From: an uncultured bacterium
GTDB taxonomy: Bacteria; Omnitrophota; Omnitrophia; Omnitrophales; Aquincolibacteriaceae
Direction of reading: 5' to 3'
Length of the DNA stretch: 64,000 nt
Assembly: GCA_964562525.1 (NCBI GenBank)
Contig: CAZLTL010000005.1
Location: forward strand, 876-64,875
Shown here: positions 16,404 to 64,000 of the stretch, one piece after another
How positions within the stretch are numbered: the stretch's first letter is position 1
Layout of the letters: each line of letters begins with the position of its first letter
Notes under the pieces: generated by a model
What the model was told of the DNA's origin: nothing
Database searches by the model: none
Seen by the model: only the letters and a program-made list of their open reading frames with translations
Position numbers and translations under genes: made by a program

Positions 16404-16436
16404 TTCGGCCCGGCTCTTTTTTTAGAAAGAGTACTT

Positions 16437-17675: not shown

Positions 17676-17835
17676 AACCTGGCTTTGCGCGGCCTAAATA
17701 ATTAAGAAAAACGCGAATTTTTCATTCTTAACGCAGAATATTTTAGTAGAATAGCCGCATGAAACTCGAACCAATTTGTTTAGGCTCTGTGCTTCGCACA
17801 ACCGCGATTTCCACTAATTCGCCACTTCATTATTC

Positions 17836-22570: not shown

Positions 22571-22599
22571 TATATTGCAATTAATATATGATTTATAAT

Positions 22600-22642
22600 A
22601 AAATCATTTCTGGTGAGACAGAAATGATTTTCTGTTTATAAT
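22600..22642 (+). promoter_or_regulatory. Perfect 12-bp inverted repeat AAAATCATTTCT-N8-AGAAATGATTTT followed by a TATAAT hexamer (22637-22642), 28 nt upstream of recA; candidate operator overlapping the recA promoter
   Basis: Read directly from the sequence. Its position relative to the -10 hexamer and the recA start suggests a repressor site (SOS-type). Confidence 0.35.
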
Positions 22643-22669
22643 ACGCCAACGCAATCATAAGGAGTTCCC

Positions 22670-23779: not shown

Positions 23780-23796
23780 GACCCGGTCCGTCGGTT

Positions 23797-41767: not shown

Positions 41768-41823
41768 CATTTTATCGCTGAGCTCACTCAACCGGCGTTA
41801 ATGCTTCAAAAGGCTTTTGACGA

Positions 41824-43676: not shown

Positions 43677-44646
43677 CCCTCTTTTCTTTTTATTGCTGCT
43701 TCTCTTGCCGATTTTATTTTATTTTTCCAGATCCAGACAAAAAGTGTGGATGCCGTTTTCCAGTATTTCTGAGCGGGGCTTGCATGGAACGGTGTCACTC
43801 AAAATTTTGCTTTACCGGCTTTTGCCTTTTTTGCGTTTGACCGTACTTGCTTTGGTGATATTTGCGCTTGCGCGGCCGGTTCAAGCTCTGTCAGAAAAAG
43901 ACTTCGAAACCCAGGGAATTGACATTGTGATGTCGCTAGATATTTCAGGCTCCATGCTGGCTGAGGATTTCAAGCCGCAGAACCGCTTGTTTGTTGCCAA
44001 GGAAGAAGCCAAAAACTTCATTAATGCCCGCCAGAATGACCGCATTGGATTGGTTATTTTTGCCAAAAAAGCCTACTCGCAATGCCCCTTAACGTTGGAT
44101 TACAAGATTTTGAATCAGCTGGTGGATGATGTGCAAATTGGGATGATCGAAGACGGCACTGCGATTGGAATGGGGCTGGCCACTGCGGTAAACCGGCTTA
44201 AAACAAGCACTGCCAAGAGCAAGGTCATCATTTTGCTGACCGATGGTGATAATAATGCCGGCAATATTGACCCTGTCACTGCCGCGGAGCTGGCGAAGAC
44301 ATTCGGAATTAAAGTGTATACGATTGGCGTTGGGAAAGGCGGGCTTGTTGATTTTCCTGTCGTGGATCCTTTGTTTGGGAAACGATATGTCCAGGTTGAA
44401 ATGGATGTGGACGAGTTTGTGCTGAAGCGAATCGCGGACATCACCGGAGGAAAGTTTTTCCGCGCTCGTGATGCGGCAGGACTTAAAGAAGTTTACTCAA
44501 AAATCGATCAGCTTGAACGTACAGAGATCAAAGTGCATCTCTATCAAAGCTATCAAGAGCTTTTTAAATATATTCTGATTCCCGCTGTCTTGCTTTTGTT
44601 CATTGAATTGGCTTTATCTAGAACTGTTTTACTTAAAATCCCATGA
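43657..44646 (+). CDS. batA: von Willebrand factor A-domain membrane protein, BatA-like
   Basis: N- and C-terminal TM helices flanking a vWA domain with the MIDAS motif (DIVMSLDISGSM...LTDGDNN). Confidence 0.7.
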   Translation: MGMQFRDPLFFLLLLLLPILFYFSRSRQKVWMPFSSISERGLHGTVSLKILLYRLLPFLRLTVLALVIFALARPVQALSEKDFETQGIDIVMSLDISGSMLAEDFKPQNRLFVAKEEAKNFINARQNDRIGLVIFAKKAYSQCPLTLDYKILNQLVDDVQIGMIEDGTAIGMGLATAVNRLKTSTAKSKVIILLTDGDNNAGNIDPVTAAELAKTFGIKVYTIGVGKGGLVDFPVVDPLFGKRYVQVEMDVDEFVLKRIADITGGKFFRARDAAGLKEVYSKIDQLERTEIKVHLYQSYQELFKYILIPAVLLLFIELALSRTVLLKIP

Positions 44647-44712
44647 CAACACACGATCAACACCAAAATAATAAATGGCGGTTGGGCATAGCCCAGAGCC
44701 GCAAATAATACT

Positions 44713-47031: not shown

Positions 47032-47094
47032 TCGTTATTTTTTCAGCGTCGAAAATGAACCAAAAAAATAATTTTAAATAAAGGAGCGATTTTT

Positions 47095-47541
47095 ATGGGA
47101 AAACTCATGCAGTCATTCAATGAAGAAATCAAAAATGCTATGCGTGCCAAAGATGAAGTCAAGTTGGGTGTTTTGCGTATGGTTAAAACCGCGATGAACA
47201 ATGCTGCGATCGCCAAATCTAAGGATCAGCTGGATGATGCTGAAGAATTAGATGTGGTTCAAAAGCAAGCCAAGCAACGCCGTGAAAGTATCGATAGCTT
47301 CGAAAAAGGCGGACGTGCTGAGCTTGCCGCCAAGGAAAAGGCCGAGTTGGCTGTTTTGGAGGCCTATTTGCCGAAGCAAATGTCAGATGATGAAATTAAA
47401 GCGGTGTGTCAGTCCGTTATCGCTAAGGTTGGCGCAAAGAGTGCTGCGGATACGGGGGCGATCATGAAAGAACTGATGCCATTGGTCAAAGGCAAAGCTG
47501 ATGGTGGCCGTGTTCAAACCATCCTTAAAAGCCTGTTTTGA
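47095..47541 (+). CDS. GatB/YqeY-domain protein
   Basis: ~148-aa helical protein whose N-terminus (FNEEIKNAMRAKDEVKLGVLRMVKTA) resembles the YqeY family. Confidence 0.6.
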   Translation: MGKLMQSFNEEIKNAMRAKDEVKLGVLRMVKTAMNNAAIAKSKDQLDDAEELDVVQKQAKQRRESIDSFEKGGRAELAAKEKAELAVLEAYLPKQMSDDEIKAVCQSVIAKVGAKSAADTGAIMKELMPLVKGKADGGRVQTILKSLF

Positions 47542-47731
47542 TATGTTGTTTTTATTGGCGCTTTCTACTTGTGGCTCTATGGCAATTTGTTAACATAAGA
47601 TACATTATAGGACTCAATTAAAGCATAGGGAGGGTTCTTATCTTTACACAAAACCAAAATATTCAGGTCCTGGCTTTGATCCCGTCAAGACATCTAATCA
47701 GCTCTTCCTTACCCCAATAAGGATTTCAACG

Positions 47732-49090
47732 ATGTCACCACAAACATCTCATCCAGAGCCGAGGAATCATGTTGTTGTGGGCATTGTTATTTGTATTCTA
47801 ATATTTTCAGCTGGGCTATTGCCCATCGACTCGGTTCGACCTCTGCAGTTATTGGGTTGGCCCGTCTGGATTTTTTTGGTAACGCGTTTAAGCCTGAAAT
47901 CGGGTTTAACAGCATCCCTTTTGATTAATCTCACGCTTAGTTTATTCGGCTCGTTTTGGATTGAATATTTCGGCTCTGGGTTTCTTATCAAGGCTGTGTT
48001 GTTATCGTTTTGGGTTTTACCGACATTAACTTTGATTTTTCACGGTATTCGAAAAATAACAATGCTTGGAAACGCTTTCGCTTTGGTTTTAGCTTCTGTT
48101 TTTCCCGTGGCATTCATTTCGCAATCACCCCTTTACCAGGGATTTTTTAATTTTCCGCTTGTTGCTGAGCAAATTCTTTTCTTGTTTCATGGTTCGTTAG
48201 GCCTTTTTATTTTAGGAGTCGCTTGGATTGGTTTATGTGCCGGAGCCTTGGAATTGCTCAAGACTAAATCTAAAACAGCTCTGATTATTACTGCCGTTAA
48301 CAGTTTAGTTTTGATACTCGCTTTTGGTTTTGGCGCATTTCGGACAATGGAAGAAACGTCAAATACTTCAATTGATCCAAACACAGTAAAAAAAGTGGCA
48401 TTAGTTCAACACAACGTCCCGTTCTTTTCTGATTCACGCGACTTGCAAGCTGTTTTGGAATCTTATGCTATTAAATCAATAGAGAGCGTAAAACGCGATC
48501 TGATTGTTTTTCCTCTGTATGACTTACCTGAAAACTTGCAGCGCGACCTTATTGATCCGGATAGCGGATTCTTTCGTGATCTTGCCTTGAAAACAAATTC
48601 GGGTATTTTAGTTGCTACTAAGCTGTCAGGATTGGTTGCTTTTGGTAAATTTTCGAATAATTTTGTCATTGCCGCAGCGCTTCGTTCCGGCGCAGGTTCG
48701 CTGGATGGTGTGCATCGCTCTTCTGCGCGTTCGCCGTTTCATGATCCCAGACAAGTTTTAGAGAAATATGATGTGATTAAGTCGAACGAATTTGGAACTT
48801 TTGGTGCTTTGATTTCGTATGAATTAGAAACACCGGATCGCGCCCAAACTGCGAAAAGGCTCGGCGCTAAGTTTCTGGTGGGTTTATCAAACCCCGGCGA
48901 CGCACCCTATTCCCCTTTACCTGCTTATCAGCTTAAAGAAATCCAGAGGCGTGCCATTGAAACCAATCTGCCAATTTTATCGGTAACCCCGAACGGATAT
49001 TCGGCGCACATCGATTCGCGGGGACGGGTTGTTAAGAAATCGCAGCTGGGACAATCCGAAATCTTATTAGCAGACTTGGTCGTAATTTAA
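47732..49090 (+). CDS. lnt: Apolipoprotein N-acyltransferase-like protein (Lnt architecture: polytopic N-terminal membrane domain + C-terminal CN-hydrolase-like domain), with apparent substitutions at catalytic positions
   Basis: ~6 TM helices, then the Lnt-hallmark VALVQHNV (compare VALVQGNI). At positions aligned by eye to the E. coli Lnt triad: IVFPL (Glu to Leu) and ALISYE (Cys to Ser). Confidence 0.55.
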   Translation: MSPQTSHPEPRNHVVVGIVICILIFSAGLLPIDSVRPLQLLGWPVWIFLVTRLSLKSGLTASLLINLTLSLFGSFWIEYFGSGFLIKAVLLSFWVLPTLTLIFHGIRKITMLGNAFALVLASVFPVAFISQSPLYQGFFNFPLVAEQILFLFHGSLGLFILGVAWIGLCAGALELLKTKSKTALIITAVNSLVLILAFGFGAFRTMEETSNTSIDPNTVKKVALVQHNVPFFSDSRDLQAVLESYAIKSIESVKRDLIVFPLYDLPENLQRDLIDPDSGFFRDLALKTNSGILVATKLSGLVAFGKFSNNFVIAAALRSGAGSLDGVHRSSARSPFHDPRQVLEKYDVIKSNEFGTFGALISYELETPDRAQTAKRLGAKFLVGLSNPGDAPYSPLPAYQLKEIQRRAIETNLPILSVTPNGYSAHIDSRGRVVKKSQLGQSEILLADLVVI

Positions 49091-49154: not shown

Positions 49155-52100
49155 TTACGCTGAGGCTTCAACCTTCTTGCGGGATGCAAGCTCAATGAGC
49201 AGTGATTTGAGAGCTTCGTTGTTCCAGTATTTGTTCATGTCGCGAATGCCGTTGCTCAATCGGGTATCCACACCAGGCGCGAATTGCAGATCAAATTGTT
49301 TTGCTCCGAACTCAATCGCTAACTTACCTGTCGAAATCGCTTTTGCTATGAGCTCCTGATCCAGTGTATTTTCACCGTCATAAGCAAACGTCATCAATTC
49401 ATGATCTGCAGGATTATTTGCAGCCAAGGTCTGATTCAACTCTGCCAACTTAGCGAGCATACGGTCATTGGTTGCCAGCTCTCTTGGCATCAAGATTGTG
49501 CTGCTGCTGATACCGATTCGAAGAATCTTCTTCGCGAGCACCTGAGCGTCGATTGCTTCGATGTTCGCAGCTGAAATGACGTCCACGTCGTTGATCTTCA
49601 AATTTCCGGTAGGATCAAGCAACATCACATTGGTTGTGCTGCGACCAATTTTAGATTTAAACGGACTTTGAACTCCGGCAACACCCTTCATGATTTGCTC
49701 AACAGCAAGTCGTGCTTTAGCATCAAGCGAAGCGTTTTTCAACGCTTCAAGGTATTCATTCATCAGCAGTACTTCTGCGGTGAATGAAGCGGCCATCGCA
49801 GATCGCTGCATACCCTTGACTGTTTCAAGATAAGCTTCAATTTCGCGAAGCATATCGATGTTAGAACCATAAAGCCCTGCGAAAGGAAGCAATTCGGAGT
49901 TAGCAGCAATAAGTTCGTCTGCTGTTTTCCCTTCCTGCGCGGCGTGAACCGCTTCGTGACTAACAATCGCAATTGCCATCCGCTCAACCATAACCGCGTA
50001 AGCTTGATCATCGAGCCCAACAAACTTATCAGGATTGAGAACAATCTTGCCTGCTATATCTTCGTTGGGCTCTTTTATGTCTGCATAAAGACCGAGCGCA
50101 TTGTTAGCAAAATAATCTCTCACCTGCTCTGGCGTTGCAAGCTCAATCGGCGGCAATGTCATATTTTTTAAGGAATCTGATTCTGGCGCTAACTGAGAAA
50201 TCTTTTTATCTGCAAGATTTACTATATCCGATAGAACTGAGTCTCTTAATTCAGATCGATTAGCGCTCACGGGTTGTTTTTCTGAATCCACAGCATCTAA
50301 CCCCATATTTACAGGCATTGTTGTTTCTGTAACAAACGCAGAACCCTTATCAGTACCCCAATTTTGAATTAAATCATGCACTCCAAATACCCAGCTGCGC
50401 ATATACATTGCCGCAGCCTTTTGGATATTGTCGGATTTTGTTACCTTAAACAGTTCAGCAGCTTCGCTTTCGGTTAAAATCTTTTCTCCGCGCTGCTTGA
50501 TCTCAGGCTGATTATTTTCCGCGAGTTTTGCATTCACTATAGACTCAGCTAGTTCTTTGTCACCGCGGCTAGCGGCATCAAGCCACTGAAAAAACCAGCG
50601 TGACATGTCAATCTGACCAAAATAATCAGATTGTTCTCCAAAAATAGCGCGATAAAGCTTGAATGCTTCTTGATAGTCGCCTTTTTCAAGCATGGCATCA
50701 GCTTGAGTGAAATTACTTCTATACTTCAAAATTGGGCTGTCACCTGCACTCACAATCTTACGGTAACTTGCCATTTTCTTAAGATAGAGCTCGTCCATCA
50801 TCGCGCCCGCTGCGGTAAGGCCTTCGTAAGCTTGATTTGCTTCACCTTCAGGCAGTGCGCGCAAATAAACTGTGGCAAAGTACTCAGCAAGAAAATCGCG
50901 TGCGATTTGCCCCTGGCTATCGGAACCTTGTTTGTGAATCCAAAGCATCATTTGAGCTTTCATACGCGTTTCATCCGCTGTCTTGGGATCAGCAACGATT
51001 GAAGTTAATTTTTTCTGAAGCGCGGATTCATCTTTAAGTAAAGTCTGAACTCCAAGCTGCTCTGCCAAATACTTCTCAGAAGCCCATTGGTCGAGCAAAT
51101 ATTCCATGGTTTCATGCAGCATAAAGGCACGAATCACACCATCGATTTGAGACTCTGAAGCCCCCATGGAGCGCATCAAATTCAGCTTCTTCAAGAGTTC
51201 TGCGCTGAAAAACATAATTTTTCCAGAAACATGAGCTGCTGCATCAGGATCAGAATCAACCGCTTTTTGAATATCGCGCAATACAAGCGCTGCATTAGTG
51301 ATAAAGGTCTTTGCCATAGGCTGTTCTTCGGCAGAAAAATTATTCCACTGCATTGACTCGAGTGATGCGGTTACTCTTTCTGCGGTTTTTTCGATCCAGG
51401 TTAGATCGACACCTAATCCATAAACGCGACGGAATTCTGAAAGAACATTCGTATGCACCATTTCTTCGGATTGATTAGCTAGGTCAAGCAGAGCTACCGT
51501 TCCTTCCAGATTTTGACGGAGGTCTTGTTCTAAAGCATTCTGTGAGCGCGCACTTAAAACTGCATTTGCAAAGTCATTACGGAAGGTTCCTTCTGCAAAC
51601 ATTGTAGTAATCAATCCGCCAGCATCTAATCCATGAACCTCAGCTAACATCTGAATACTTTCAGGCGTTAACCATTCGTATCGAGCAGCAATGGCCGCAA
51701 AAGCATCTTGAGTAATATTTGCGCGCAGCTCCATGTCTGCAGCAAATACCTGCTTAAGTTCTGCGATCGAAATATTAGTATTAAGCAAGGCTGATAAAGC
51801 TGAGTAATGCTGCGTGTTGATTTCGGAGTCCACCATTCGAAGAGCGTCTTCAACGGTTAAGCCCGCCTGTTTGGCATTCGCCAATACCCATGCCAGACTT
51901 TGTGAAGAACCTAGACCCTGCGTCTCAAAGCTAGCTATGGCTTTGAGATAAACATATTGCTTAAACATCGAGGTTTCAACACCTCCCAAAGCTTGTGCCA
52001 CAAGTGAATCAAAGATTGCACCGTCATTTATTTTTTCACCGGCCTGGCTAAGTAAAATTAACATCAATTGGGCTGATTTTCCGATGACTTCGGCATACGA

Positions 52101-55100
52101 CGCAGGAGCAAGCTGTTGGATGCGCTTAAGTGTTTGTGCAAAAGCTAGTGCCTCAGTAGAGCGTTCCCCATCACCCTGCTTAGTCATTTGCTTGATTAAG
52201 ATCTCATACTGTGAAGATGCAGCTCGATTACGCAAAACTTCCGAAGCTGCGCGCAATGGAGCTCCCCAGGTTTTCTGAGTTGCCCAGCGCGAAAGAAAGT
52301 TTTCGGTGCGGCCTAGAGTCTTACTGAGCGACTCAGCAGCAAGCGAGGTCATCTCATCATCACTTACGCTAAAGACCGCTTTTGTTAAACGCGCGTCAAA
52401 TTCTTGAACCAATTGAATGTAGGTCTCAATTGATCTGATGCTTATCTCGCGCGGCAGCGCTTTTACAAGATTTGCATGATGACGGATAATGAGAGATGCC
52501 GCTTTCGCGTCTATCAATAAATTCAGCTTACTTAATTCAGCGGCAGCATCCTCACCACTCATGTTTAAAATATTCGGAACTATTGCAGCAAGAGAATGAT
52601 CGCTTTTAAGACCTATCAGCGGAAGAAGCGTATTATTCCACCATCCCCGAATATTGTCTGTCATTCCGGGCATCCAGCGGCTTTGCGTAAGGGCGAGCAC
52701 TGCACCGAACATTCCAGCAGCAATCAAGAAAGCCGGTGTCCAAACAGCTCCGACCACAAGTCCAACAGAAGAAATGACTAATGCACGCTTGAGGTCGTTT
52801 GAATCATTGCCTTGCGTACCATACGCAAATGCTTTTAAGCGGTAAGCCCAGACAGCCGGGGTCAAATTCGTCTTCAAAAATCCTCGTTCGGTGCTGAGCG
52901 CTTGATACATTTTATCCTCTGAAATTTTAAGGCTTTCTGAGCGACGGATCATCCCTGATTCGAGATTTGAACGACGTGTACCTTGGGTAAACACGTTCTG
53001 ATAAACAGCAGCCTGCGCGCCCGTATTTGCAAAACCCATCGTGCGAATAGCACGCCAAGCCGCAAATTCAAAATTACGACTAACCAAAGTGCTCGCCAAC
53101 ATTTCACCAAGCAACGCATTCTGAGAATTACCCAACTCTACTTGATAATCAGCTAATGCATGACCGATGAATTCAAGCCGTTTAGCAAGATCCATCGAAT
53201 TTCGGCTTTCAAAAATATTCAGAGTGTTGAGATATTGAACCGCAGAGACCATGGCGTCATTTTGGCTTGATCCGCGATCAAAAGTGTCTCCGTTTAACGA
53301 TGCAATAAGCGCGACGGCCTCAATCACAGCACCTGCCGAAGACGGTGTGGTCACATTTGCGCCAAAAACTCCGCGAAGAAACTGAATCGAACGGTAGGCT
53401 CGGCCATTGACGGTACCCACTCCGATGTCACCTGTTTGCTTCCAATAATCAATTACCCGGTCAGCAAGTTCTGCCGAAACACCGCTTTCGTACTTGAGCT
53501 CGTTAATCGCGCGTTCAGGATTGTTCACGCGTTGCGCAACGTGCTTTTCGTATTTTTGTGCTTGTTCATTGCCCGCTATTCGGCTTTCGCGTGACTTAAG
53601 AATATAATCACTAAAGAGCATGACGGTTTTTACGAAGTCACGCGGGCTACCCTCTTGCTGGCGTGCAATGGAATAGCGGCCATCAGCATTGTCGGCTTCA
53701 ATCCGGGCAATATCAAATTCTGATGAAACCCGCTCACCCGTCATAGCACGTTCAATCGACATTAAATCGTGGAAATTGAAAACATGCTGTATCAATTCAC
53801 GAGATAGCCCTGTTTGAAGCAGTTTCTCCATCAAGGAGCCTCGCTCAACGCGGCTGGTTTCTGTCTTATTTCCAAAAACTTGCTGAATAGTCATTTCAAC
53901 CTGTCGGCGCACAAATTCACGGCCATCAACACCATCGCGTGAAAGCTCAGTCCACTCATTGCCGATTTTACCTTCTTCAAGCTCCGAGATGACTTCGCGG
54001 ATTTTTTTGAGCATTGGTTCATCTGCATTAAATGTAACAAGTAACTTTCGCATACCCTTCATGACCATAAAATCTTGCAGATACGTGCGTACAACTGCTT
54101 TTGCGCCCTCGGATTGATGCAAAGCTTCATTGAACTCCGCATTCAGGGTCAATACGGTTTCACGGCCAAATTCGCGTACGAGCTCTGCATTGAGGATTTC
54201 AGAAAAACGGGCGGGATCAATGCGCCCAGGCTCTTTCAGGCTGGCGGCTAATTCGAGAATTTTGCCGTACATCTGAAGTCGTGATTCGTAAAGAGCAATG
54301 CGGTTTTGCGACAAATTAACTTGCTCGTTAGAAGCATTCTTCATAACTTCAGATTCGATTGCCCGCACGGCTTCGAGTTCATTTGCAGAACGGGTTTGCA
54401 TGCGGTGCAAGAAACTGACAAAAGAGTCGTATGAGACTTCTCCGATAGCGGTTTTCAAGTTTCCTGCTAATGCTTCGGCATCTGCAAAAAGTCTGATTTG
54501 ACCCTGATTGGAGCGGTCGCGACCGATGACTTGCGCTAAGAAATGTGAGGCATAGTTCTGAACATCAAATGCAAAAACATGGGTCGCGGAAAGTGAGCGT
54601 GCTTCGTCAGGTAATACCTTCTTGAGGATATCAATCAGAGCTGTCTCACCTTCTTGTCCTTTGTATTCAGGGTTTTTCTGATTTTCTTTCATTTGCTCAA
54701 CCGCAGAATTGATTTCCCGATTTTCGCTCACGCTCATTTCACGAGGACGGGCTGCATTCAACCCGGTTCCGCCCACTTCGGTTGCAACGAGGATGCGGAA
54801 CCCTGAAACCATCTCACGTGCAAAACCAGGGATATTAGCTTCATTGGTATTTTGATCGACATTCAATATTTCATATTTGGCATCAAGTAATCCCTCTGCT
54901 TTCATTTTTGCAACTGACTCATCAATCCATTTGCGCATTTCAGGGTTACGCAGCACCATCACAAAGTTATCGTTGAAGACAACATTCGAGTTGCCTTTTT
55001 TCTCCGAAGCCTTAGCAACCGCATCGCGCATACTGGCTTCAAAAGAATCTTGGAACGCTACTTTTGAGACATTACCGTCCAATAATACTGTGCTAAGACG

Positions 55101-58100
55101 ATCGACGGATTTCGATGCGTAATAAGAAAGATCCGGAGCACTGCGGCCAAGCTCAAGTAACGCGTTTCCGGTGAATAGACGAATGTATTCAGGCATCGTC
55201 GCCGTAAGCGCCACAGCTCCGCGGATAAAATTTGACTGCACCGGCGTACCCATCTTAGTGCGTAACCGACCCAGTGAACCAGAATCAAACCAGCTTTCAA
55301 GCTTTGTCCAGTCTTGAATTTTGACTGAGCTGCTTTCAACGGACACGCCTTCTGTTTTTTGCGCGCCAAGTTCAGGTGTCACATCTGCTTTTTCAAAACC
55401 GTACTCACTAACTGTTTTGCCAAGTTTGCCGCCCAGGTCAGAGAAATACTTGTAAAGAGAAGCGATTTGCAATGCCACATCACTTGATTGCTGGTCTTTG
55501 TGAATGCGGATATTATCCGCGGGTTTTAATACCAGCCGCGCAAGCCCTTGTGCATTTTCTCCCACCATCACACCCATGCGGGTTTCCTTACCATAAAGTG
55601 CGAGAAAAATAGAAGAGAACTCACGAGCGAGCTGGATGCCGTATGGCGCTCCGATTTTCGTTAATTCGGCCTGAAGACCCGCAGTAAAAATAACTTGTCC
55701 GCCCAATTCATCGACATAAAAAGCTTTGCGGCCCGCACCCTCAGCGCCAAAATACTCAGAACCCAATGTGTCAAATTCACTACGCTTGATTTCTTCATAG
55801 CCCTTTTTCTTAAGCGTATCAATGAATTCAAAGTATTTTTCAATTGTTTCGCGCCCCACAAACTTAGGACGATTACCATCGGCAATGATGGCTTTCACAC
55901 GGCTGAACGCAGCAAATTGGGCTTCATCGAGCACAACTCGGTCGAATTTATCGTTGAGATAATGAATTAAATCTTTGCCTGCCGGACTGTCAATGTTGTT
56001 AAAAAGATGCGTCTTAGAAAGAATATCTGTGACCAAAACACCATTTTCTTTGCGGGCAAGTTCAGCCTGCAATCCGGCAAAATCACGATTACCATCCGCA
56101 ATATATTTATCCGCAAGAACCAATTCCATGCCGAGTGCTTTAGCAACTTGCGAGTTCGTTAAACCCGAACCAAACTCAATTTCGGTCGGCATTTTATTAG
56201 AAGACATTCGGTTTTCTAGAACAAGCGCGACGCGCCCTTTGCGCTCGTTAAAGTTACGGTTTGACATATAAAATGCCGAACCCAAAAGCTGCCCGCGGGT
56301 TTTACCGATGCCGGTTCCGGCCGAAACGTCAAAACCAAGGTCGATTCCTACTGCAATCATAAAATGCGCAGCACCGCGGCCCATCATATCCGCGAACGGA
56401 CGATCTGTTATATCGGTTAAACCTTTATCGCTCAACATTGCAGTTTCTCGATTAACACGCCCGTCTTTAGTCATCGTGGTTTCAAAAATAACTGTTTCAA
56501 AAATATAATTCTCGACTCGGCTTGCAAATTTCCCTGCAATTTCTTCGCGACCATTTGAGTTTTTATCAAATGTTTTGCGGATTCCATCGACAAGCTGTCT
56601 TGTAAGACCTGATTCCATCACATTTCTTATTTGCTGACGTACAGCTTGAATCGCTTCCTGATTTCCTGAACGTGCTGCATCAAACAGACTGGTGTTCAAG
56701 TTCTGCGCTGAAAGCTCTTGGTGTAAACGATCGCGTGCCGCAAGCACAAGATCAGCCGTTGATGCACGAGCAAGCAATGCCGTAATCTCAGACTCGCTTG
56801 TGGCTTTAATTAGCGCATCAAGCACTTCCGTTTTTCCGTCAACACGAGTTGCTTCAATCAAGGCACCGCGTAGTAACTGTTGAATTCGGCTGCCGGCCGT
56901 TTCTTTGATGCTCAACGCCTCACCGAGACTTGTACCCGTGGCAAACTGCACCAAATCAGCCACTTGCTCAAGCCCTGATCGATTGACTACAAGCTCTACT
57001 CGGCCTTTTAAATTTGATCCTTCAATCTCTAATTTGCGAATCTGATCGTGAACTGTTTGAATTTGTTCTGCGGAGCCTTTTTTCTGATAAAGTCCCTCAA
57101 GCTCTTGTCTCAATCCGTCAAGCTTCGTGTTTAGCGCTTTGTATTTCGGTTCGATCACGCGAACCTCGGCAATAGCTTCAACCCAAGCTTTCATCGCGGC
57201 TTTTGTTTCAAATCGTTCAATCATTTCGTGGTTTGACATTTTGAGCATCTCACGAATGGCTTCCGTGCGGATTTCAACATCGGTTTTGGATGCGGACGCA
57301 TCGATGTTTTTGAGTTCTTCGAGAGTTACAGTCTTCCATTCTGCGGCCAGGTATTCAAAAAGTGCCATTCCCGCATTTTGCGGTCCGGTGAGCTGGCGCA
57401 GCATTGCCAAAGTCTCGTAGCTGATATGAATCGTTTTGCCGTTAGCATCAAGAATGACGATACCTTCAAATGATTTATCCGCATTCTTGGAGGCGACACG
57501 GAAAACTTGAGCAGCCTTGGAGGGCGCTCGTGACTGAATCTCAGCAATGGCTTCTGCCGCTTTTTCCGCACGGATTGTCGGTGCGGCTTCATTCAAAGTA
57601 ACAGTCAAAACAGCGCGTGCGGCATCTTGTGCGCTGATTAACTCCGCTGGAGGTGCTAAATTTGTGAGCTGCGCCACAAATGCTTCGGCTAATGCCGGTA
57701 GTAAGTCGCTTAAACGTGTATTCAAAACCAAATTATCCTTAAACGCCGCGTCACTTAATCCAGTTTCTTTTAAAAACTCTTTTAATGTCTTACCGTTAAC
57801 CGCGTCAAACCCTTCATGTGCGAGCTTTACGGCTTCATTGAGAACGTTGGCAACTGTTTCAGTTAACGCTGCAGAATTTTCGGTATCGATAAAAAGGTCT
57901 GATACAAGTGTTCGTAAATATCCGCGATTGGACTGAGCGGTAAAAGCTTGAAAAAATCCTGATACCTCTTTAGCTGCAGTTGATCCAGAGAGCATTCCTT
58001 CGATAAAAAGATGCGGCTCAGATAAGATAACGCCACTGCTTAATCTTCCGCTCACATCCATATCTTTCAAAAGTTCGCGTGCTGCATACTTGTCCGTGAC

Positions 58101-61100
58101 TTTAACGCCTTGAACATCCGCTTCTGCGATTCTGCTAAATGAAACATTTTCAGTTTTCGCATCAGTTACGCGTGCTTCGGGCTCAGCGAATGAAATTGCG
58201 ATACCAAATTCAGCGAGTGTTCTACGCGAGGAAGCATGGTTCGCAATAACGTAGAAGTTAACCGTCGTCAAATCAATCGGCTTAGAGTCTTTAGGGAGAT
58301 TAACTTGCTCAAGACTGATGTCTTTTCTTTCAAACAAAATTTGATCTACCAAATCCATGCGCCGCTGTTGGTAAGCCTCTGCCAAAACGCGTCCGCCATC
58401 TGTTTGCGCTTTAACTTCCGTGATCCGCTCTATGGCGGTTTTGAAATCTGAATTAAAGCGCCCTTGAGCCGCAGTGGACATTAATGGATGCCGTGCTTGG
58501 GGCACTAAGAAAATCGCATACTCACCGACTCCCTGCATAAATTTACCGTAATTACCTTGAAAGTCGTTCGCTGCGGCAAACGCAGCAAAGCTGACGGGCA
58601 TCATGAAATAATGTGCCAGCATCATCGGAATTGACTCAAGCGTAGCCGGCCCGCTTACGCCGCCAATCGGAGTATAAGTTCCGGTCAAAAGAGCGGTAAC
58701 ACCATTAATCGATGAAAGCACCGCATTAAACATCAACATATTGTCAGCAAATGCGAGGAATTTACCGGCACCGCCGGGTTGAAGCATATGATTTTTATAA
58801 AAATTATTATTGAAAGTATTAGCCAAACCACGGATTAATCCTTGAGTTTCAGATAATGTGCCCAGCGCTCCCCGAGAGTACGTAATTCCGGCAACATGCA
58901 TAACTTGTCCCAAAATTACATCGTGAGCAAGACGCTCTGTACCCCATGCTTCGAGGCTTAGAAACTCGTGGTCGAACCAAGCCCAAGCGAGGCGGACATT
59001 GCCCCAGTTTTCCCATCCATAAGTTTTGCCGTCAGGACCAATATTGGCTCCAAAATCAGCGAAAAGATGTTTAATGCCAAGCAAAGACTCCGCAACAGGA
59101 AAGGCATGGAAAAATATCACGCTACTGTATGCTTGATCCCATAGCGCGCTCACAAGCGCTTTATTACCGTGAATCGATTGCTCCAAAGCTCCAGAAATGG
59201 GCATATAGCCTGATTTAACCGCTAAATCACGGCTGACCAACGGTAAAAACTGAGACTTTCCATCACGCAATATAAATTTGCCGTTCACAATAGATGCACG
59301 CGATACGGATGCGGATAATCCCACAAGAAAACGGAATGCAAATCCAGCGCTAAAAAAGTAGAGCCCCCAGCTTTGAACCTGCTTATTGCCTGTAATTATG
59401 CCGACAGTTAAAGTACCTGCGCCAATCCATGAAGCAACGACGCCTGTACCATAGGCAAAACGTGTTGCGGCATTTAATCCAGAAATGCCGCGCAAACTTC
59501 CTAAGAAAAGCGGCCCCATCAACATGAATCCGCCGGTGACGGCAAGGGCTGTGCCCACCACTTTTAGAAAGGCAATATCGTAGTGGTGTCCCACTTGCTG
59601 CAAGGCGGCACCGAGACCGATTACAGAGGCACTGACTGTATTCCAGCTTTTTAAGGCAGCTAAGGCGGCTGTTCCGAGCCCCTGAGTGGTGCTCCAACCT
59701 TTGGCAAGATCACGCAAGGTGCTGACACTCTTTATTGCATTGGATCCGAACGTTTGCCACCCAGCCTTTGTGAACGCGGCTGCCCCAACACGAGCGCTAC
59801 TTACTGCGAATGATTTGATAAAAACACCCAAGCGTGCCCCCACAGGTAAATACGACAGGGTGCTACCTACATCCAGAGTTGCATTGAGCCATGTTCCTTG
59901 TATGCCGTTGGATTGTAAAATGGCATTGCCAACTGTGCTCGCGAGACCGATACCTCCGAGCGTGTCTACCGTAGTCCAAAAAGTTGATGTGCCGCCAACA
60001 CCGCCCAAAGCACCAAGCCCATATGCAAGACCAATAGCGCCGCCAACCATAGCAACTCCGCCAAATACTTTCAGATAATTGCCGACAGAATTATCTCCGG
60101 CATAGCTGCCTGCCATGTACATACCTGCTCCCACACCTAGCCAAATGGTACCGCCGACAGCAAAAGCACTCGCAGTTGATACAGAACCCACCGCCACTGT
60201 TGTTGATCCGGCTAATACCAATGCACCAGTGCCGTAAGTCACAACAACCATACCCACCACAGCCAAGGCTGCTGCACCACCGCGCAGCCATTTTTCACCC
60301 GTGCTCATATCGCTCCAAACAGACTGCGCGGAAAGCCAAAAACTATTGTCGTAAGATTCACGCATACGGAGTACGCGGCCTGAAGCATCGATATCTTCAA
60401 CATGGGAATGCTGCGAGCCCTCTGCGTAATTGAGATACTTGATAGAGGTCGCCTGATTGTCAGAGTTAAAGGTGCGAGCAAGCTCAAAGCGGTCGTCGTC
60501 GGTGTCTTCATATTTAAATGAAGCCAGTTGCCCCGCCGCATTGAATGTCAGACTACCTTTGAATCCAATCAAATTGACGGATTCGCCAGCATTTCCCGGT
60601 TGAGGAACAAATATCTGTGGATCGTTATCAATGATTCCACCGTCAATAAACTGGTACTCAGCAGCTTGCTTGAAATTATTGTTTTTATAGACCGCAATCA
60701 GTTTATTGTCGCCGCCGTTGTTCTCAGAAAGTGAGAATGTGATGTGATGCGTATTATCATCAACGCGAGTGAACTCATATCCGACACCAGAACCTTCGAG
60801 AGTAATCGGGTTATTTTTCCCCATCAATATCCATTCATGGCCAAATTCAGTCACAATCACTGAGCTGCCAGAAATAAACTGATTACTATTGGTCATATTC
60901 ACCCACGCAACGTTACCATTTACGTCGCGCAAGTAGGATCGTTCGTTTTTTTCTTTATAGGTTTGGCCGGTAGGCATCATAGCGCCGCCAACACTGCCAT
61001 AGCTCACCTGGTATCCCGTTGCTTGCCATTCACCCGTTTTAATTTGCACAAAAGTGCTGCCGTTTACCAGCGCATATGTATATTTCGTTCTGTTTTCACC

Positions 61101-64000
61101 CACTGAAACGGATTGTCGAATGACTTTTCCCTGCTCGTTAAAAACATACGTGGAACTATCACTGAAACTGAATTGAAACAGATTTTTATCAGACGCGCTG
61201 TAACCTTCTAAGCTCATCCCAGACAGATTCTTTGAAATGATATTATTCAAGTCGCTAAGATCTGCCGCAAATGAACCCGAGAAATTAATCAAAGGAAGTG
61301 CTCGAGCGTCTACAATATGTCCGCTTTCACCCTTGACGTCCCATGCCGCGAATGAAACATCTCCGCTTTGAATATCTTTAAACCGAAGAATTGTTCCGCT
61401 TACATTGGTGATTTCATGCGTATCGGTTTTGCTGTATATCAAAGACTGAGCGATTCCCGCTGCACGCGCCGCTTGCGCAGATTCAGAACCGGCTGGCAAT
61501 TTCTCAAAATCAAAATCTATGGCGCCGCGGAATGCGCCGATTAAACTGTTTTTGCTGTCGACAAATACTCTTAAAGCTAAGTCAGTGCCAATTTCGTCAC
61601 CCGAAATAACTTTTGAGGATGTTGCGTGAGTCGAAATCAATTCAGCAACCGCGTTATTCACTGATATTTCCGAGGAAGAAGTGTTCCTTGGATCATTGGC
61701 AGAATAAACAGTAACCGAAGTTTGAATATTGGCTTTATCTTGTTTAAGCTCGCTCTCATTGGCCCAGCGCATATCCGAGCCGAATTGGCGGTCAAAGCCG
61801 TCAACGAGTTCTCCGTCGTTGTTATAGACACCAAGAAAGTCACGACCAATATTTTCACCCGGAAGAATCTTGAACCCTGCGCGAGTTTCAGCATATAAGA
61901 GTCCTTTAATATTGTCCGCGCTGCTGAAAACTGCAATAGTTGCACCCTGCGCCAAAGGATCAGTGCCTGCAAAGAGATCCGTATCCACAAATACGCGGAA
62001 TGAGCTGTTATTTTTATCTGAGCCCACCAACAGCAGGTTTGCCTCAGCTAAACCATAGCGGCCTTCATACTGTTGGCCCGATTGTGATATAAATTTTGAG
62101 CCTTCTTTACGCTCAAGGTTTTGTTGCTGCCGCTGCAATTCAGCTGGAGTTGCCGCTTGCAGCATATTGCCGGAGCGATCGAGCGCTCCAAAAAGTGATT
62201 TACCATCTTCGCTGAGAATCTGATACCAGTGTCCAGAACGATCCATATTGAGCAAAGCACGGTTACCATCGATCTCGATTGCCATTTGCTGTAATGATGC
62301 AAATTCACTCAAATTGCCGAAACGTGTCGCCAAAATCTCACTCGCTTCATTGAGGTAGATTGCGATTCCTGCATTATCTCCGCGGTCACTAATAATTTCA
62401 TATGCCGGAGAAATAGATTTCCAAGTTTTTCCGCTGCCATCACTCAAGCTCTTGTATTCACCGCTCTGTGGCAAGTTGTATCCGGAAGTTCCGTAGGCTT
62501 TCCGCAAAACCTCAGTTTGAGTTTTGCGGTCAAACAGGCCTATAGTTCCGCTTGTGTCGCGTATCAAATAACTTTCTTCACCTAAATGAGGTTGATATGT
62601 TTTTCCGGCAATTTGAAAAAATACTGTCTGGATTTGATCGTTGATCGTACCTAAGCCAGCGGGTTGCAGTACTTCTAATGTCACGCCTTGAAGCATACCA
62701 ATACGATCACCGGATTCGTTTAAATAGTATGCAACACTAACTTCGCGACCATTTTGGTCGAATGCAATACCCTTGACGAATTTGTTGTAGGCAAACTGCT
62801 TGGTAGGATCATTCGATTGAAGTGGATTTAACTTACCGCCAGCTTCCATCTTAGCGGGGCCATTCATGAACTGATAACCTACAAAAGCGCCATTGGCATC
62901 CGTGATCTTGAAGCTGTTGTTGCCCATGCCGGAGTAGCTTTGGTTATTTGCATAGGCAAAAAGTGTCATGGCTTCAAAACTGCCTACGCCAGTTACCATT
63001 CTATCAATCGCTTGATCTAAGCTCAGTGTTTTGTCGCCATTCCACTGGCTGACCAAAGTGATTCTATTCTCATGCGCAAAGAAACTAAAATGTTCTCCTT
63101 TGTTATTTGTCGCGCCAAAGACGCGCTCAACGTTAAGACCGCCGATTGATGTGTTCTTTGCAAATTCACCAGCAACTTTGTCAGTATCAACAGTCTTACC
63201 AGAATCAAAATGACCATTATGCCCAAGCACGCCTACTAATTCACCCGTGCGAAGATCATTAACCTGAAACGCTTGCGCGATATTCATTAATCCGCTCATT
63301 TCGTATTTAAAATTACCAACTTGATAACTCATGTACGTTAAGCCTTCAAATGAAGTCAGAGTTATATTTTGAGAGGCAGGACCATTCACTAGCAAATTAG
63401 CAAATTCAGGCAATCCCATGACTGCATTGATTTCATTCAGTGTTGATTGATTTCCGCGCAAAGTAATTGATTGACCGCGTTCATTCACCAAAAGCTGATA
63501 CATTTGTCCGTTGTTGGCGTCAGCGGTTAAAACTTGTTTCGCTGTGAATGTTGCGCTCTTCAAACCATCGCGCGTATTAAGCGACCAGGTATATGGCGAA
63601 TCAAGTGTGCGCGCATCGTAGAATTTGCCGCTGACACCGATTATTCCGTCAAGACTATGAGTGTAAGGGTTAAACACAGAGTAAACGCCATAATCCCCGT
63701 TTTGGAAAGCTTCAGGCAGGTGGCGATATTCGAGACCATCCTGCGTGTAAAATAATGCAAGTGTCTTATCCTTGCCGACCCCTGTCATCATCAAACTCGC
63801 AATATCCCCATTCTCAAATCCGATTTCAAACGAGGCTTTTTTCTGCGCGCTAAAAAGGGTTACAGACGAATCAATATTTAAATTGAGCAACCCTGATTTA
63901 GTATGAACTTGAGGTTGATCTTTGGTCCAAGTTCTCAAAGACAAGTATTCGCCCTGGTTAATGAACCCGATCACGGCTTGGGTTTTAAGATCGCGAGCGA
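49155..64000 (-). CDS. Giant multidomain membrane protein, >4,939 aa, 5' end beyond the window. Beta-rich N-terminal region, Gly/Ala-rich polytopic TM segment, central SF2/SNF2-like P-loop ATPase, second TM hairpin, long alpha-helical C-terminus with HExxH
   Basis: A single uninterrupted 14.8-kb minus-strand ORF (stop TAA at 49155-49157) that stays open to the window edge. Walker A DVSAGTGIGKT (~56296-56335), Walker B VVLDEAQ (55917-55937), motif V ILVATEVGGTGLN (54761-54805), motif VI AQVIGRDRS (54511-54537). Gly-zipper TM cluster ~59277-60297. HEAVH at 49924-49938. No other frame has comparable ORFs. Confidence 0.8.
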   Translation of the reverse strand, partial: ARDLKTQAVIGFINQGEYLSLRTWTKDQPQVHTKSGLLNLNIDSSVTLFSAQKKASFEIGFENGDIASLMMTGVGKDKTLALFYTQDGLEYRHLPEAFQNGDYGVYSVFNPYTHSLDGIIGVSGKFYDARTLDSPYTWSLNTRDGLKSATFTAKQVLTADANNGQMYQLLVNERGQSITLRGNQSTLNEINAVMGLPEFANLLVNGPASQNITLTSFEGLTYMSYQVGNFKYEMSGLMNIAQAFQVNDLRTGELVGVLGHNGHFDSGKTVDTDKVAGEFAKNTSIGGLNVERVFGATNNKGEHFSFFAHENRITLVSQWNGDKTLSLDQAIDRMVTGVGSFEAMTLFAYANNQSYSGMGNNSFKITDANGAFVGYQFMNGPAKMEAGGKLNPLQSNDPTKQFAYNKFVKGIAFDQNGREVSVAYYLNESGDRIGMLQGVTLEVLQPAGLGTINDQIQTVFFQIAGKTYQPHLGEESYLIRDTSGTIGLFDRKTQTEVLRKAYGTSGYNLPQSGEYKSLSDGSGKTWKSISPAYEIISDRGDNAGIAIYLNEASEILATRFGNLSEFASLQQMAIEIDGNRALLNMDRSGHWYQILSEDGKSLFGALDRSGNMLQAATPAELQRQQQNLERKEGSKFISQSGQQYEGRYGLAEANLLLVGSDKNNSSFRVFVDTDLFAGTDPLAQGATIAVFSSADNIKGLLYAETRAGFKILPGENIGRDFLGVYNNDGELVDGFDRQFGSDMRWANESELKQDKANIQTSVTVYSANDPRNTSSSEISVNNAVAELISTHATSSKVISGDEIGTDLALRVFVDSKNSLIGAFRGAIDFDFEKLPAGSESAQAARAAGIAQSLIYSKTDTHEITNVSGTILRFKDIQSGDVSFAAWDVKGESGHIVDARALPLINFSGSFAADLSDLNNIISKNLSGMSLEGYSASDKNLFQFSFSDSSTYVFNEQGKVIRQSVSVGENRTKYTYALVNGSTFVQIKTGEWQATGYQVSYGSVGGAMMPTGQTYKEKNERSYLRDVNGNVAWVNMTNSNQFISGSSVIVTEFGHEWILMGKNNPITLEGSGVGYEFTRVDDNTHHITFSLSENNGGDNKLIAVYKNNNFKQAAEYQFIDGGIIDNDPQIFVPQPGNAGESVNLIGFKGSLTFNAAGQLASFKYEDTDDDRFELARTFNSDNQATSIKYLNYAEGSQHSHVEDIDASGRVLRMRESYDNSFWLSAQSVWSDMSTGEKWLRGGAAALAVVGMVVVTYGTGALVLAGSTTVAVGSVSTASAFAVGGTIWLGVGAGMYMAGSYAGDNSVGNYLKVFGGVAMVGGAIGLAYGLGALGGVGGTSTFWTTVDTLGGIGLASTVGNAILQSNGIQGTWLNATLDVGSTLSYLPVGARLGVFIKSFAVSSARVGAAAFTKAGWQTFGSNAIKSVSTLRDLAKGWSTTQGLGTAALAALKSWNTVSASVIGLGAALQQVGHHYDIAFLKVVGTALAVTGGFMLMGPLFLGSLRGISGLNAATRFAYGTGVVASWIGAGTLTVGIITGNKQVQSWGLYFFSAGFAFRFLVGLSASVSRASIVNGKFILRDGKSQFLPLVSRDLAVKSGYMPISGALEQSIHGNKALVSALWDQAYSSVIFFHAFPVAESLLGIKHLFADFGANIGPDGKTYGWENWGNVRLAWAWFDHEFLSLEAWGTERLAHDVILGQVMHVAGITYSRGALGTLSETQGLIRGLANTFNNNFYKNHMLQPGGAGKFLAFADNMLMFNAVLSSINGVTALLTGTYTPIGGVSGPATLESIPMMLAHYFMMPVSFAAFAAANDFQGNYGKFMQGVGEYAIFLVPQARHPLMSTAAQGRFNSDFKTAIERITEVKAQTDGGRVLAEAYQQRRMDLVDQILFERKDISLEQVNLPKDSKPIDLTTVNFYVIANHASSRRTLAEFGIAISFAEPEARVTDAKTENVSFSRIAEADVQGVKVTDKYAARELLKDMDVSGRLSSGVILSEPHLFIEGMLSGSTAAKEVSGFFQAFTAQSNRGYLRTLVSDLFIDTENSAALTETVANVLNEAVKLAHEGFDAVNGKTLKEFLKETGLSDAAFKDNLVLNTRLSDLLPALAEAFVAQLTNLAPPAELISAQDAARAVLTVTLNEAAPTIRAEKAAEAIAEIQSRAPSKAAQVFRVASKNADKSFEGIVILDANGKTIHISYETLAMLRQLTGPQNAGMALFEYLAAEWKTVTLEELKNIDASASKTDVEIRTEAIREMLKMSNHEMIERFETKAAMKAWVEAIAEVRVIEPKYKALNTKLDGLRQELEGLYQKKGSAEQIQTVHDQIRKLEIEGSNLKGRVELVVNRSGLEQVADLVQFATGTSLGEALSIKETAGSRIQQLLRGALIEATRVDGKTEVLDALIKATSESEITALLARASTADLVLAARDRLHQELSAQNLNTSLFDAARSGNQEAIQAVRQQIRNVMESGLTRQLVDGIRKTFDKNSNGREEIAGKFASRVENYIFETVIFETTMTKDGRVNRETAMLSDKGLTDITDRPFADMMGRGAAHFMIAVGIDLGFDVSAGTGIGKTRGQLLGSAFYMSNRNFNERKGRVALVLENRMSSNKMPTEIEFGSGLTNSQVAKALGMELVLADKYIADGNRDFAGLQAELARKENGVLVTDILSKTHLFNNIDSPAGKDLIHYLNDKFDRVVLDEAQFAAFSRVKAIIADGNRPKFVGRETIEKYFEFIDTLKKKGYEEIKRSEFDTLGSEYFGAEGAGRKAFYVDELGGQVIFTAGLQAELTKIGAPYGIQLAREFSSIFLALYGKETRMGVMVGENAQGLARLVLKPADNIRIHKDQQSSDVALQIASLYKYFSDLGGKLGKTVSEYGFEKADVTPELGAQKTEGVSVESSSVKIQDWTKLESWFDSGSLGRLRTKMGTPVQSNFIRGAVALTATMPEYIRLFTGNALLELGRSAPDLSYYASKSVDRLSTVLLDGNVSKVAFQDSFEASMRDAVAKASEKKGNSNVVFNDNFVMVLRNPEMRKWIDESVAKMKAEGLLDAKYEILNVDQNTNEANIPGFAREMVSGFRILVATEVGGTGLNAARPREMSVSENREINSAVEQMKENQKNPEYKGQEGETALIDILKKVLPDEARSLSATHVFAFDVQNYASHFLAQVIGRDRSNQGQIRLFADAEALAGNLKTAIGEVSYDSFVSFLHRMQTRSANELEAVRAIESEVMKNASNEQVNLSQNRIALYESRLQMYGKILELAASLKEPGRIDPARFSEILNAELVREFGRETVLTLNAEFNEALHQSEGAKAVVRTYLQDFMVMKGMRKLLVTFNADEPMLKKIREVISELEEGKIGNEWTELSRDGVDGREFVRRQVEMTIQQVFGNKTETSRVERGSLMEKLLQTGLSRELIQHVFNFHDLMSIERAMTGERVSSEFDIARIEADNADGRYSIARQQEGSPRDFVKTVMLFSDYILKSRESRIAGNEQAQKYEKHVAQRVNNPERAINELKYESGVSAELADRVIDYWKQTGDIGVGTVNGRAYRSIQFLRGVFGANVTTPSSAGAVIEAVALIASLNGDTFDRGSSQNDAMVSAVQYLNTLNIFESRNSMDLAKRLEFIGHALADYQVELGNSQNALLGEMLASTLVSRNFEFAAWRAIRTMGFANTGAQAAVYQNVFTQGTRRSNLESGMIRRSESLKISEDKMYQALSTERGFLKTNLTPAVWAYRLKAFAYGTQGNDSNDLKRALVISSVGLVVGAVWTPAFLIAAGMFGAVLALTQSRWMPGMTDNIRGWWNNTLLPLIGLKSDHSLAAIVPNILNMSGEDAAAELSKLNLLIDAKAASLIIRHHANLVKALPREISIRSIETYIQLVQEFDARLTKAVFSVSDDEMTSLAAESLSKTLGRTENFLSRWATQKTWGAPLRAASEVLRNRAASSQYEILIKQMTKQGDGERSTEALAFAQTLKRIQQLAPASYAEVIGKSAQLMLILLSQAGEKINDGAIFDSLVAQALGGVETSMFKQYVYLKAIASFETQGLGSSQSLAWVLANAKQAGLTVEDALRMVDSEINTQHYSALSALLNTNISIAELKQVFAADMELRANITQDAFAAIAARYEWLTPESIQMLAEVHGLDAGGLITTMFAEGTFRNDFANAVLSARSQNALEQDLRQNLEGTVALLDLANQSEEMVHTNVLSEFRRVYGLGVDLTWIEKTAERVTASLESMQWNNFSAEEQPMAKTFITNAALVLRDIQKAVDSDPDAAAHVSGKIMFFSAELLKKLNLMRSMGASESQIDGVIRAFMLHETMEYLLDQWASEKYLAEQLGVQTLLKDESALQKKLTSIVADPKTADETRMKAQMMLWIHKQGSDSQGQIARDFLAEYFATVYLRALPEGEANQAYEGLTAAGAMMDELYLKKMASYRKIVSAGDSPILKYRSNFTQADAMLEKGDYQEAFKLYRAIFGEQSDYFGQIDMSRWFFQWLDAASRGDKELAESIVNAKLAENNQPEIKQRGEKILTESEAAELFKVTKSDNIQKAAAMYMRSWVFGVHDLIQNWGTDKGSAFVTETTMPVNMGLDAVDSEKQPVSANRSELRDSVLSDIVNLADKKISQLAPESDSLKNMTLPPIELATPEQVRDYFANNALGLYADIKEPNEDIAGKIVLNPDKFVGLDDQAYAVMVERMAIAIVSHEAVHAAQEGKTADELIAANSELLPFAGLYGSNIDMLREIEAYLETVKGMQRSAMAASFTAEVLLMNEYLEALKNASLDAKARLAVEQIMKGVAGVQSPFKSKIGRSTTNVMLLDPTGNLKINDVDVISAANIEAIDAQVLAKKILRIGISSSTILMPRELATNDRMLAKLAELNQTLAANNPADHELMTFAYDGENTLDQELIAKAISTGKLAIEFGAKQFDLQFAPGVDTRLSNGIRDMNKYWNNEALKSLLIELASRKKVEASA

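Follow-up and report, generated by a model that had tools for sequence, protein, structure and literature searches.

A rare family of giant Omnitrophota proteins shares a conserved, predicted polytopic membrane module

Introduction

The giant proteins of the bacterial phylum Omnitrophota are among the least understood of bacterial gene products, which raises the question of how thousands of their residues get to the cell surface. Here we consider one such protein, hereinafter GIANT, which is encoded on the minus strand of a stretch of 64,000 nucleotides from an uncultured member of that phylum (positions 876 to 64,875 of contig CAZLTL010000005.1, assembly GCA_964562525.1; this whole stretch is termed the window). 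Residues 1227-1566 of GIANT are strikingly rich in Gly and Ala, and a sequence-only reading of the locus had described them as a glycine-zipper segment with many membrane spans, more than an anchor would need and reminiscent of channel-forming helical bundles. What, then, is this segment, and what might it do in a protein of such a length?

Our analysis shows that it forms the poorly conserved first half of a polytopic membrane module of ~610 amino acids (aa), spanning residues ~1219-1828. The module is conserved and membrane-like in character, and always lies upstream of an ATPase, with a hypervariable region before it and an HExxH motif further downstream; its best-conserved part, residues 1560-1830, was missed by the coordinates originally flagged. 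The result is thus mainly corrective: the feature is real, there is no glycine zipper, and the informative part lies just beyond the flagged segment. As a discrete module marked out by a start motif, by LFLVPQxR at its end and by twelve invariant residues, it supplies both a profile for finding further members of the family and a set of residues to mutate.

Results and Discussion

The giant open reading frame

The open reading frame (ORF) of GIANT covers 14.8 kb of the minus strand (49155-63974):

49155..64000, minus strand: giant ORF, 4939 aa from the GTG at 63974, with the frame open to the window edge

None of the eight complete codons beyond that GTG (63975-63998) is a stop, which brings the open codons inside the window to 4,947 or more. 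Because the frame does not close before the window ends, the 5' part of the gene is probably missing; 4939 aa is therefore a lower bound, and the residue numbers used throughout, which are counted from the GTG, are window-relative.

The minus-strand frame proposed by the sequence-only reading holds, as do its coordinates, with residues 1227-1566 mapping to nucleotides 59277-60296. Its dismissal of the antisense frames as junk is likewise upheld by the plus-strand ORF at 59686-60078, which is Pro/Ala-rich. We found no tandem repeat at the DNA level in the region 59277-60297. Searches with Pfam and NCBIfam, run on the whole of GIANT and on nine segments of it (at E<=1 for the Pfam segment searches), returned no match, and neither did a megablast of 24 kb against phage and plasmid collections.

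Anatomy of the membrane module

Hydrophobicity and family alignments together delineate the following elements, given in the order of the protein after the segment as a whole (TM, transmembrane):

59277..60297, minus strand: residues 1227-1566, the segment flagged at the outset, the Gly/Ala/Val-rich front part of the membrane module
60291..60320, minus strand: juxtamembrane motif W-x2-[LM]-[ST]-x2-[EQ]-K (VWSDMSTGEKW in GIANT), just before the first TM helix
60015..60278, minus strand: three strongly hydrophobic, nearly charge-free helices (1233-57, 1266-91, 1296-1320), from hydrophobicity and alignments
59595..59960, minus strand: K/R-rich, weakly hydrophobic amphipathic helices, residues 1339-1460, marginal TM or membrane-surface segments
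59301..59576, minus strand: three conserved TM helices (1467-91, 1502-28, 1531-58) with the motifs PxFFGNP, GSxxSWxGAG and WGxxLxxxGFxxR
58773..59300, minus strand: conserved, weakly hydrophobic core of ~180 aa, residues 1559-1734, from the family alignment
58491..58772, minus strand: hydrophobic helices 1735-64 and 1782-1802, then the closing motif, from hydrophobicity and alignment

The Gly/Ala-rich composition of residues 1227-1566 is evident from its most frequent residues (G 17.9%, A 14.1%, V 10.9%, L 10.3%; G+A+S+T 49%) and from the scarcity of charged residues and proline (K+R 5.3%, D+E 1.8%, P 0.6%). It is most extreme in residues 1227-1345, which combine 24% Gly with ~32% Val+Leu+Ile+Met+Phe, 5% charged residues and no Pro. 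Mean Kyte-Doolittle values over 19 residues reach 1.6 or more in GIANT only around this segment, where they peak at 2.1, and at residues 3731-3763. When the Hessa biological hydrophobicity scale is summed over 19 residues, GIANT has nine low-energy windows, eight of which fall between residues 1237 and 1802; eight such windows within 600 aa exceed the count in every one of 300 whole-protein shuffles (maximum 6).

Combining these scores with the helix boundaries of a low-confidence AlphaFold2 model, we recognize six robust hydrophobic helices within residues 1227-1566 (1233-57, 1266-91, 1296-1320, 1467-91, 1502-28 and 1531-58), with Hessa sums of 0.7-3.9 and, except for the first (0.29), low hydrophobic moments of 0.08-0.14. 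Between the third and the fourth lie three or four weaker, K/R-rich amphipathic helices (residues 1339-1460), and beyond the flagged coordinates there are two more hydrophobic helices, 1735-64 and 1782-1802. The estimate of 8-12 helices given by the sequence-only reading therefore fits the whole ~610-aa module, residues 1219-1828, with 8 robust and ~3 marginal helices, but not the 340 aa to which it was assigned, which have 6 robust and ~3 marginal ones. An internal duplication of helical hairpins in GIANT did not rise above shuffle expectation. That residues ~1219-1828 constitute a real membrane module is a conclusion we hold with great confidence; the claim of a polytopic segment that goes beyond a simple anchor also stands, in the form of a ~610-aa module conserved across the family and bearing invariant polar residues.

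The conservation of the module is very uneven along its length. It opens, in most relatives, with the juxtamembrane motif, after which the front helices (1233-1320) are unalignable in sequence, the hydrophobic cluster being kept at the same position. Taking the invariant H1684-D1685 pair (the HD motif) as the alignment anchor, there are 8-13 candidate helices upstream of it in full-length relatives as against 6 in GIANT. The core carries the motifs FWxQAxxSxxxFRxFPVxQAxxGIDHL and RLxHDIxLGQxLHxxGxTY, helix 1735-64 carries DNMLMFN, and the module closes with YxLFLVPQxR (residues 1822-1828). Across 17 aligned module sequences, which share 19-45% identity, twelve residues are invariant: R1681, H1684, D1685, G1689, H1693, G1696, Y1699, G1712, D1744, N1745, F1749 and N1750, forming the pattern R-x2-H-D-x3-G-x3-H-x2-G-x2-Y and, further on, D-N-x3-F-N. 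All twelve lie outside residues 1227-1566, with the polar ones located in the amphipathic helix 1679-94 and at the start of the TM helix at 1744-50. A profile of the module core found no match in Pfam, the PDB or PHROGs.

A small family confined to giant proteins

A HMMER scan of 1.84 billion representative proteins with residues 1100-1850 as the query recovered nine matches, of which five are proteins of 5.2-6.2 thousand residues that share ~30% identity with GIANT over residues ~1315-1845. Pattern scans added to this picture with eight genome loci and three metagenome loci that carry the module; a name is attached to seven of the genome loci, Candidatus Omnitrophota in every case (including Ca. 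Taenariivivens baikalensis), the eighth being from an unclassified uncultured bacterium. Word-indexed protein searches, with either the TM region or a nine-sequence profile, returned no relatives, likely because low-complexity Gly/Ala words crowded the candidates; the full HMMER scan did find them. A scan of viral contigs yielded none with the module.

The module is found only in giant ORFs, and every named homolog comes from an Omnitrophota metagenome-assembled genome. In every locus the homologous ORF is uninterrupted from end to end over 14-21 kb, reaching up to 7,031 codons, with the N-terminus incomplete in each family member, so that all lengths are lower bounds. The module is thus specific to a small, rare family of Omnitrophota giant proteins, each of at least 5-7 thousand residues. 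Gly/Ala richness and an excess of K+R over D+E are traits of the family as a whole. Apparent stand-alone versions of the module, P0007 and P0009, were set aside as fragments on contigs of 1.5-2.5 kb. The gene for another relative, P0006, is interrupted by a run of N (a scaffold gap), with a further open frame of 1013 aa upstream. In a larger relative (Ga0247727_10001613), ORF residues ~850-1150 form a second hydrophobic cluster of ~8 helices, 2,400-2,700 aa upstream of the conserved module, which suggests that bigger members of the family may cross the membrane in more than one place.

The relative P0005 (GCA_043821445.1) is a syntenic ortholog of GIANT, with the gene order DnaK-MoxR-DUF58-BatA...giant. 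The two proteins are 31% identical over residues 1482-3788 of GIANT, and no similarity was detectable between P0005 and the N-terminal ~1400 aa. As the similarity is confined in this way, the N-terminal part of GIANT evidently changes much more rapidly in evolution than do the membrane core and the ATPase. In eight relatives, the sequence that precedes the module had no match in Pfam. In GIANT itself, residues 1-1226 (60297-63974, minus strand) are beta-looking and contain no Pfam domains, and a weak match (E 2.6e-4) links residues 1159-1217 to repeats in P0010, an FG-GAP-repeat protein.

The downstream ATPase and C-terminal elements

Some 720 aa after the module, GIANT has a series of motifs that, compared with those of its relatives, delineate a P-loop ATPase region, followed by two smaller elements:

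54465..56387, minus strand: P-loop ATPase region, residues 2530-3170, recognized at the motif level, ~720 aa after the module
Residues 2552-59, minus strand: Walker A, AGTGIGKT, invariant in GIANT, P0001 and P0005
Residues 2681-86, minus strand: Walker B, VLDEAQ (DEAQ at 2683-86), invariant in the same three proteins
Residues 2923-30, minus strand: LTATMPEY, invariant in the same three proteins
Residues 3062-73, minus strand: LVATEVGGTGLN, invariant in the same three proteins
Residues 3148-58, minus strand: QVIGRDRSNQG (motif VI, arginine finger), invariant in the same three proteins
52686..52784, minus strand: hydrophobic element of 33 residues, 3731-3763, mean Kyte-Doolittle value up to 2.0, central WTP, K/R on both flanks
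49944..49958, minus strand: HEAVH, residues 4673-77, with a Glu in EIEAY (4723-4727, nucleotides ~49794-49808) ~49 residues downstream

Walker A and DEAQ stand at an equal offset in GIANT, P0005 and P0001, the last an Omnitrophota protein with 41% identity to GIANT, and ~240 aa separate motifs II and III. Judged by these motifs, the region would be a P-loop ATPase of the superfamily 2 (SF2)/DEAD-like type. The equivalent region of P0006 passes the Pfam cutoffs for DEAD (29.7 bits) and ResIII (24.6 bits), not that for SecA_DEAD, and comparison of the P0006 ATPase with PDB sequences gave noise only.

Following the ATPase, the sequence-only reading had placed a further pair of TM helices. A hydrophobic element does exist there, at residues 3731-3763, but 33 residues cannot accommodate two complete spans. 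A helical hairpin or a re-entrant element is probable, with K/R on both flanks fitting a hairpin that enters and leaves the membrane on one side; a single long helix is also possible. Among the relatives, only P0005 has a hydrophobic counterpart (~38 residues) at that position.

The HExxH motif is present in all six members that reach the C-terminus, at ~230-270 aa from the end in five of them and at ~810 aa in P0002, and most of the six also have a downstream Glu. The region, which matched no Pfam family, may be a minimal zinc peptidase of gluzincin-like type, as far as its motif pattern goes. The HE[AV]VH..Q shared by GIANT and P0005 presumably resembles DUF4157, again with no Pfam match.

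Comparison with known systems

Earlier work on giant proteins of Omnitrophota reported many transmembrane regions in them, along with SecA DEAD domains of divergent sequence (West-Roberts et al. 2023, bioRxiv 10.1101/2023.11.21.568195; also 10.64898/2026.06.07.730766). In the layout of West-Roberts et al., transmembrane anchor domains are followed by secA related domains, and these authors suggested that the TM regions anchor a SecA-like motor, by which the giant protein itself may be secreted (10.1101/2023.11.21.568195). Judged by its sequence organization, GIANT appears to be a member of a rare subfamily that fits this layout: (i) all its named homologs are from the same phylum and it is a very long single ORF; (ii) a long, TM-free N-terminal part is followed by a TM cluster and then by a P-loop/DEAD-type ATPase; (iii) there are hardly any detectable domains and divergence is extremely fast. 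It differs in scale, the published proteins having 30-85 thousand residues, in length classes that exceed 10-30 thousand, as against at least 4.9 thousand for GIANT within the window and at least 7 thousand for its relatives, and in having no Pfam match to SecA_DEAD, dockerin, C39 or any other family. Moreover, the conserved module with its invariant R/H/D/H/Y/D/N is undescribed in the two preprints, whose structure predictions omitted the TM regions.

The ATPase region shares with the SecA motor the order Walker A (GxGKT), DExx, TAT-like, ATxxxGxG and QxxGRxxRxG. SecA has DEAD-like NBD1 and NBD2, with the preprotein-binding PPXD inserted between motifs II and III, and the ~240-aa insert of GIANT would, by sequence and SecA anatomy, occupy the site of the PPXD. 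Unlike SecA, the GIANT ATPase has no evident scaffold or wing domain and is fused to its own membrane module. A conceptual analogy may also be drawn with the accessory Sec systems (SecA2/SecY2), which export very large surface adhesins: in both, a dedicated SecA-like motor and a polytopic membrane component would serve one giant surface protein. GIANT departs from them in that everything would be part of one polypeptide and in that no sequence similarity to SecY or SecY2 was found.

A proposed mechanism and its alternatives

Against this backdrop, we advance the following mechanism. GIANT would be held in the inner membrane by the module, its fast-evolving N-terminal part lying outside and its ATPase inside. 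The conserved core probably has a role beyond anchorage: most plausibly, it would couple with the ATPase of the same chain for export or display of the N-terminal part, which would be moved across the membrane or held there, much as West-Roberts et al. put forward for such proteins. Taken as a whole, the explanation that this is a membrane module of a giant protein whose core probably works with the ATPase of its own chain is, in our estimation, evenly poised between being right and wrong; the export-coupling step by itself is tentative and somewhat doubtful.

Several observations weigh against this proposal. The positive-inside rule, whereby K/R-rich loops tend to face the cytoplasm, gives conflicting answers, when applied by counting to the family alignment, on the topology proposed by the sequence-only reading, in which the N-terminal region is outside and the ATPase and C-terminus are cytoplasmic. 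With eight robust spans the module would begin and finish on one side of the membrane, with the N-terminus inside and the K/R-rich loop 1324-1466 (8 K/R and 4 D) outside; that loop argues for an odd number of helices in the first cluster. Turning to the motor, neither Pfam at E<=1, including SecA_DEAD (PF07517) and SecA_PP_bind, nor the PDB, searched with the single sequence and with a profile, gave a SecA or DEAD-box match to the GIANT ATPase. A profile of this ATPase aligned with hhalign to the P0006 ATPase and to the RecG of the window gave nothing significant, and to an E. coli SecA sequence gave a match of only 16 residues at 4% probability. The SecA-likeness rests on motifs and the literature. 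The structure models are also of little help. AlphaFold2 models from nine sequences each had mean confidence scores (pLDDT) of 51 (core) and 42 (entire module), and Foldseek of a low-confidence model against the PDB gave no match (best E 2.4). The three conserved TM helices, 1467-1558, and they alone, reach pLDDT 65-85, with residues 1222-1485 at 23-46. Because of this low confidence, the fold of the module is unassignable, and neither a channel nor an enzyme fold is asserted or excluded.

The proposal has also to be set against other ways of reading the same region, two of which concern the nature of its Gly-rich part. That this might be a flexible or low-complexity linker outside the membrane is suggested by the very low pLDDT of residues 1222-1485 and the Gly content of up to 24% in residues 1227-1345; nevertheless, the latter stretch has too many large hydrophobic residues, too few charges and no Pro, the Kyte-Doolittle means rise to 2.1 and the Hessa sums fall to 0.7, the hydrophobic cluster is kept in position across all relatives, and there is no DNA repeat, which together make such a linker exceedingly improbable. 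A glycine-zipper bundle that forms a channel, in the manner of a pore, holin, colicin or MotA/ExbB assembly, was the view of the sequence-only reading. It draws on the very high Gly/Ala content, on the many pairs of small residues spaced small-xxx-small in the hydrophobic helices, and on a helix number that exceeds the need of an anchor. The glycine-zipper TM motifs, reportedly described by Kim et al. in 2005 and represented by the Pfam Gly-zipper families, are indeed like GIANT in that their TM helices are very rich in Gly, Ala and Ser, but their defining (G/A/S)xxxGxxxG periodicity is not enriched in it. The repeated GxxxG/AxxxG spacing claimed for residues 1227-1566 does not exceed what composition shuffles predict: GxxxG occurs 9 times against 10.7 expected, [GAS]xxx[GAS] 53 against 55.8, (G/A/S)xxxGxxxG triplets 2 against 4.2 and GxxxGxxx(G/S/T) triplets 2 against 3.7, and the counts in nine relatives are likewise at or below expectation. 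The zipper reading fails on this account. Pfam at E<=1, PHROGs and a PDB sequence profile also returned no channel family, be it Gly-zipper, holin, colicin, MotA/ExbB or another, and with Foldseek empty too, the proposed likeness to such bundles found no counterpart; furthermore, conservation within the module is lowest in the Gly-rich helices. We hence view a glycine-zipper pore as very unlikely, and the richness in small residues as more suggestive of tight helix packing.

The remaining alternatives concern the conserved part. Were the module a passive anchor with multiple spans, its conserved residues would be structural, contributing to helix packing or a buried polar network; this would accord with N-terminal helices that are unalignable among relatives and retain hydrophobicity alone, with the invariant Gly at i and i+7 (G1689, G1696), which suggest packing, and with the naming of such regions as anchors by West-Roberts et al. 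(10.1101/2023.11.21.568195). Yet one or two helices already suffice for anchoring, twelve residues including R, H, D, H, Y, D, N and N are invariant at an overall identity of 20-34%, and the conserved, weakly hydrophobic core of ~180 aa points to a specific activity or interaction; a purely passive anchor is accordingly rather unlikely, if still to be taken seriously. One such activity could be that of a membrane-embedded enzyme, with the invariant H/D/H/D/N cluster as a metal-binding or catalytic site of a hydrolase, transferase or intramembrane protease acting on the giant protein itself or on lipids or glycans of the envelope or of prey. The placement of the invariant polar residues in the amphipathic helix and at the start of a TM helix is compatible with this, as are the many enzymatic domains reported in giant Omnitrophota proteins (10.1101/2023.11.21.568195) and the GNAT acetyltransferase domain carried by P0002; but Pfam, NCBIfam, the PDB and Foldseek offer no link to an enzyme family and the model is too poor to show the invariant residues converging in space, leaving us to consider an enzyme unlikely. 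In a bolder variant of the favoured coupling, the module would be fused to a SecA-like motor of its own and would act as a private channel for translocation, or as a coupling device; the result would be a self-contained exporter in a single chain, which threads or displays its own hypervariable N-terminal region, with the invariant R/H/D/H/D/N as the gate or coupling site. We deem this variant improbable. The module had no match to SecY/Sec61 in Pfam (PF00344) or in the PDB profile at E<=10.

Genomic neighborhood

The window has 24 plus-strand ORFs of at least 300 aa, and those examined are ordinary chromosomal genes; the chromosomal genes of the window include his and trp genes, RecG, SMC, AlaRS, DnaK, MoxR-DUF58-BatA-like genes and a Lnt-like CN_hydrolase. 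The order DnaK, MoxR (AAA_3), DUF58, BatA/VWA and a convergent giant gene occurs both in the window (40769-49090) and at positions 16245-25735 of the locus L001 on the Omnitrophota contig JBDRCT010000010.1. Within this neighborhood, 44713-47031 encodes a 772-aa membrane/VWA/TPR (Bat-like) protein with a low-complexity tail of ~250 aa rich in Q/N/G/K/D (runs such as QNQ and GGQG). It is overlapped by a K/R-rich ORF of 254 aa (46148-46912), which probably represents an artefact of reading that tail in another frame.

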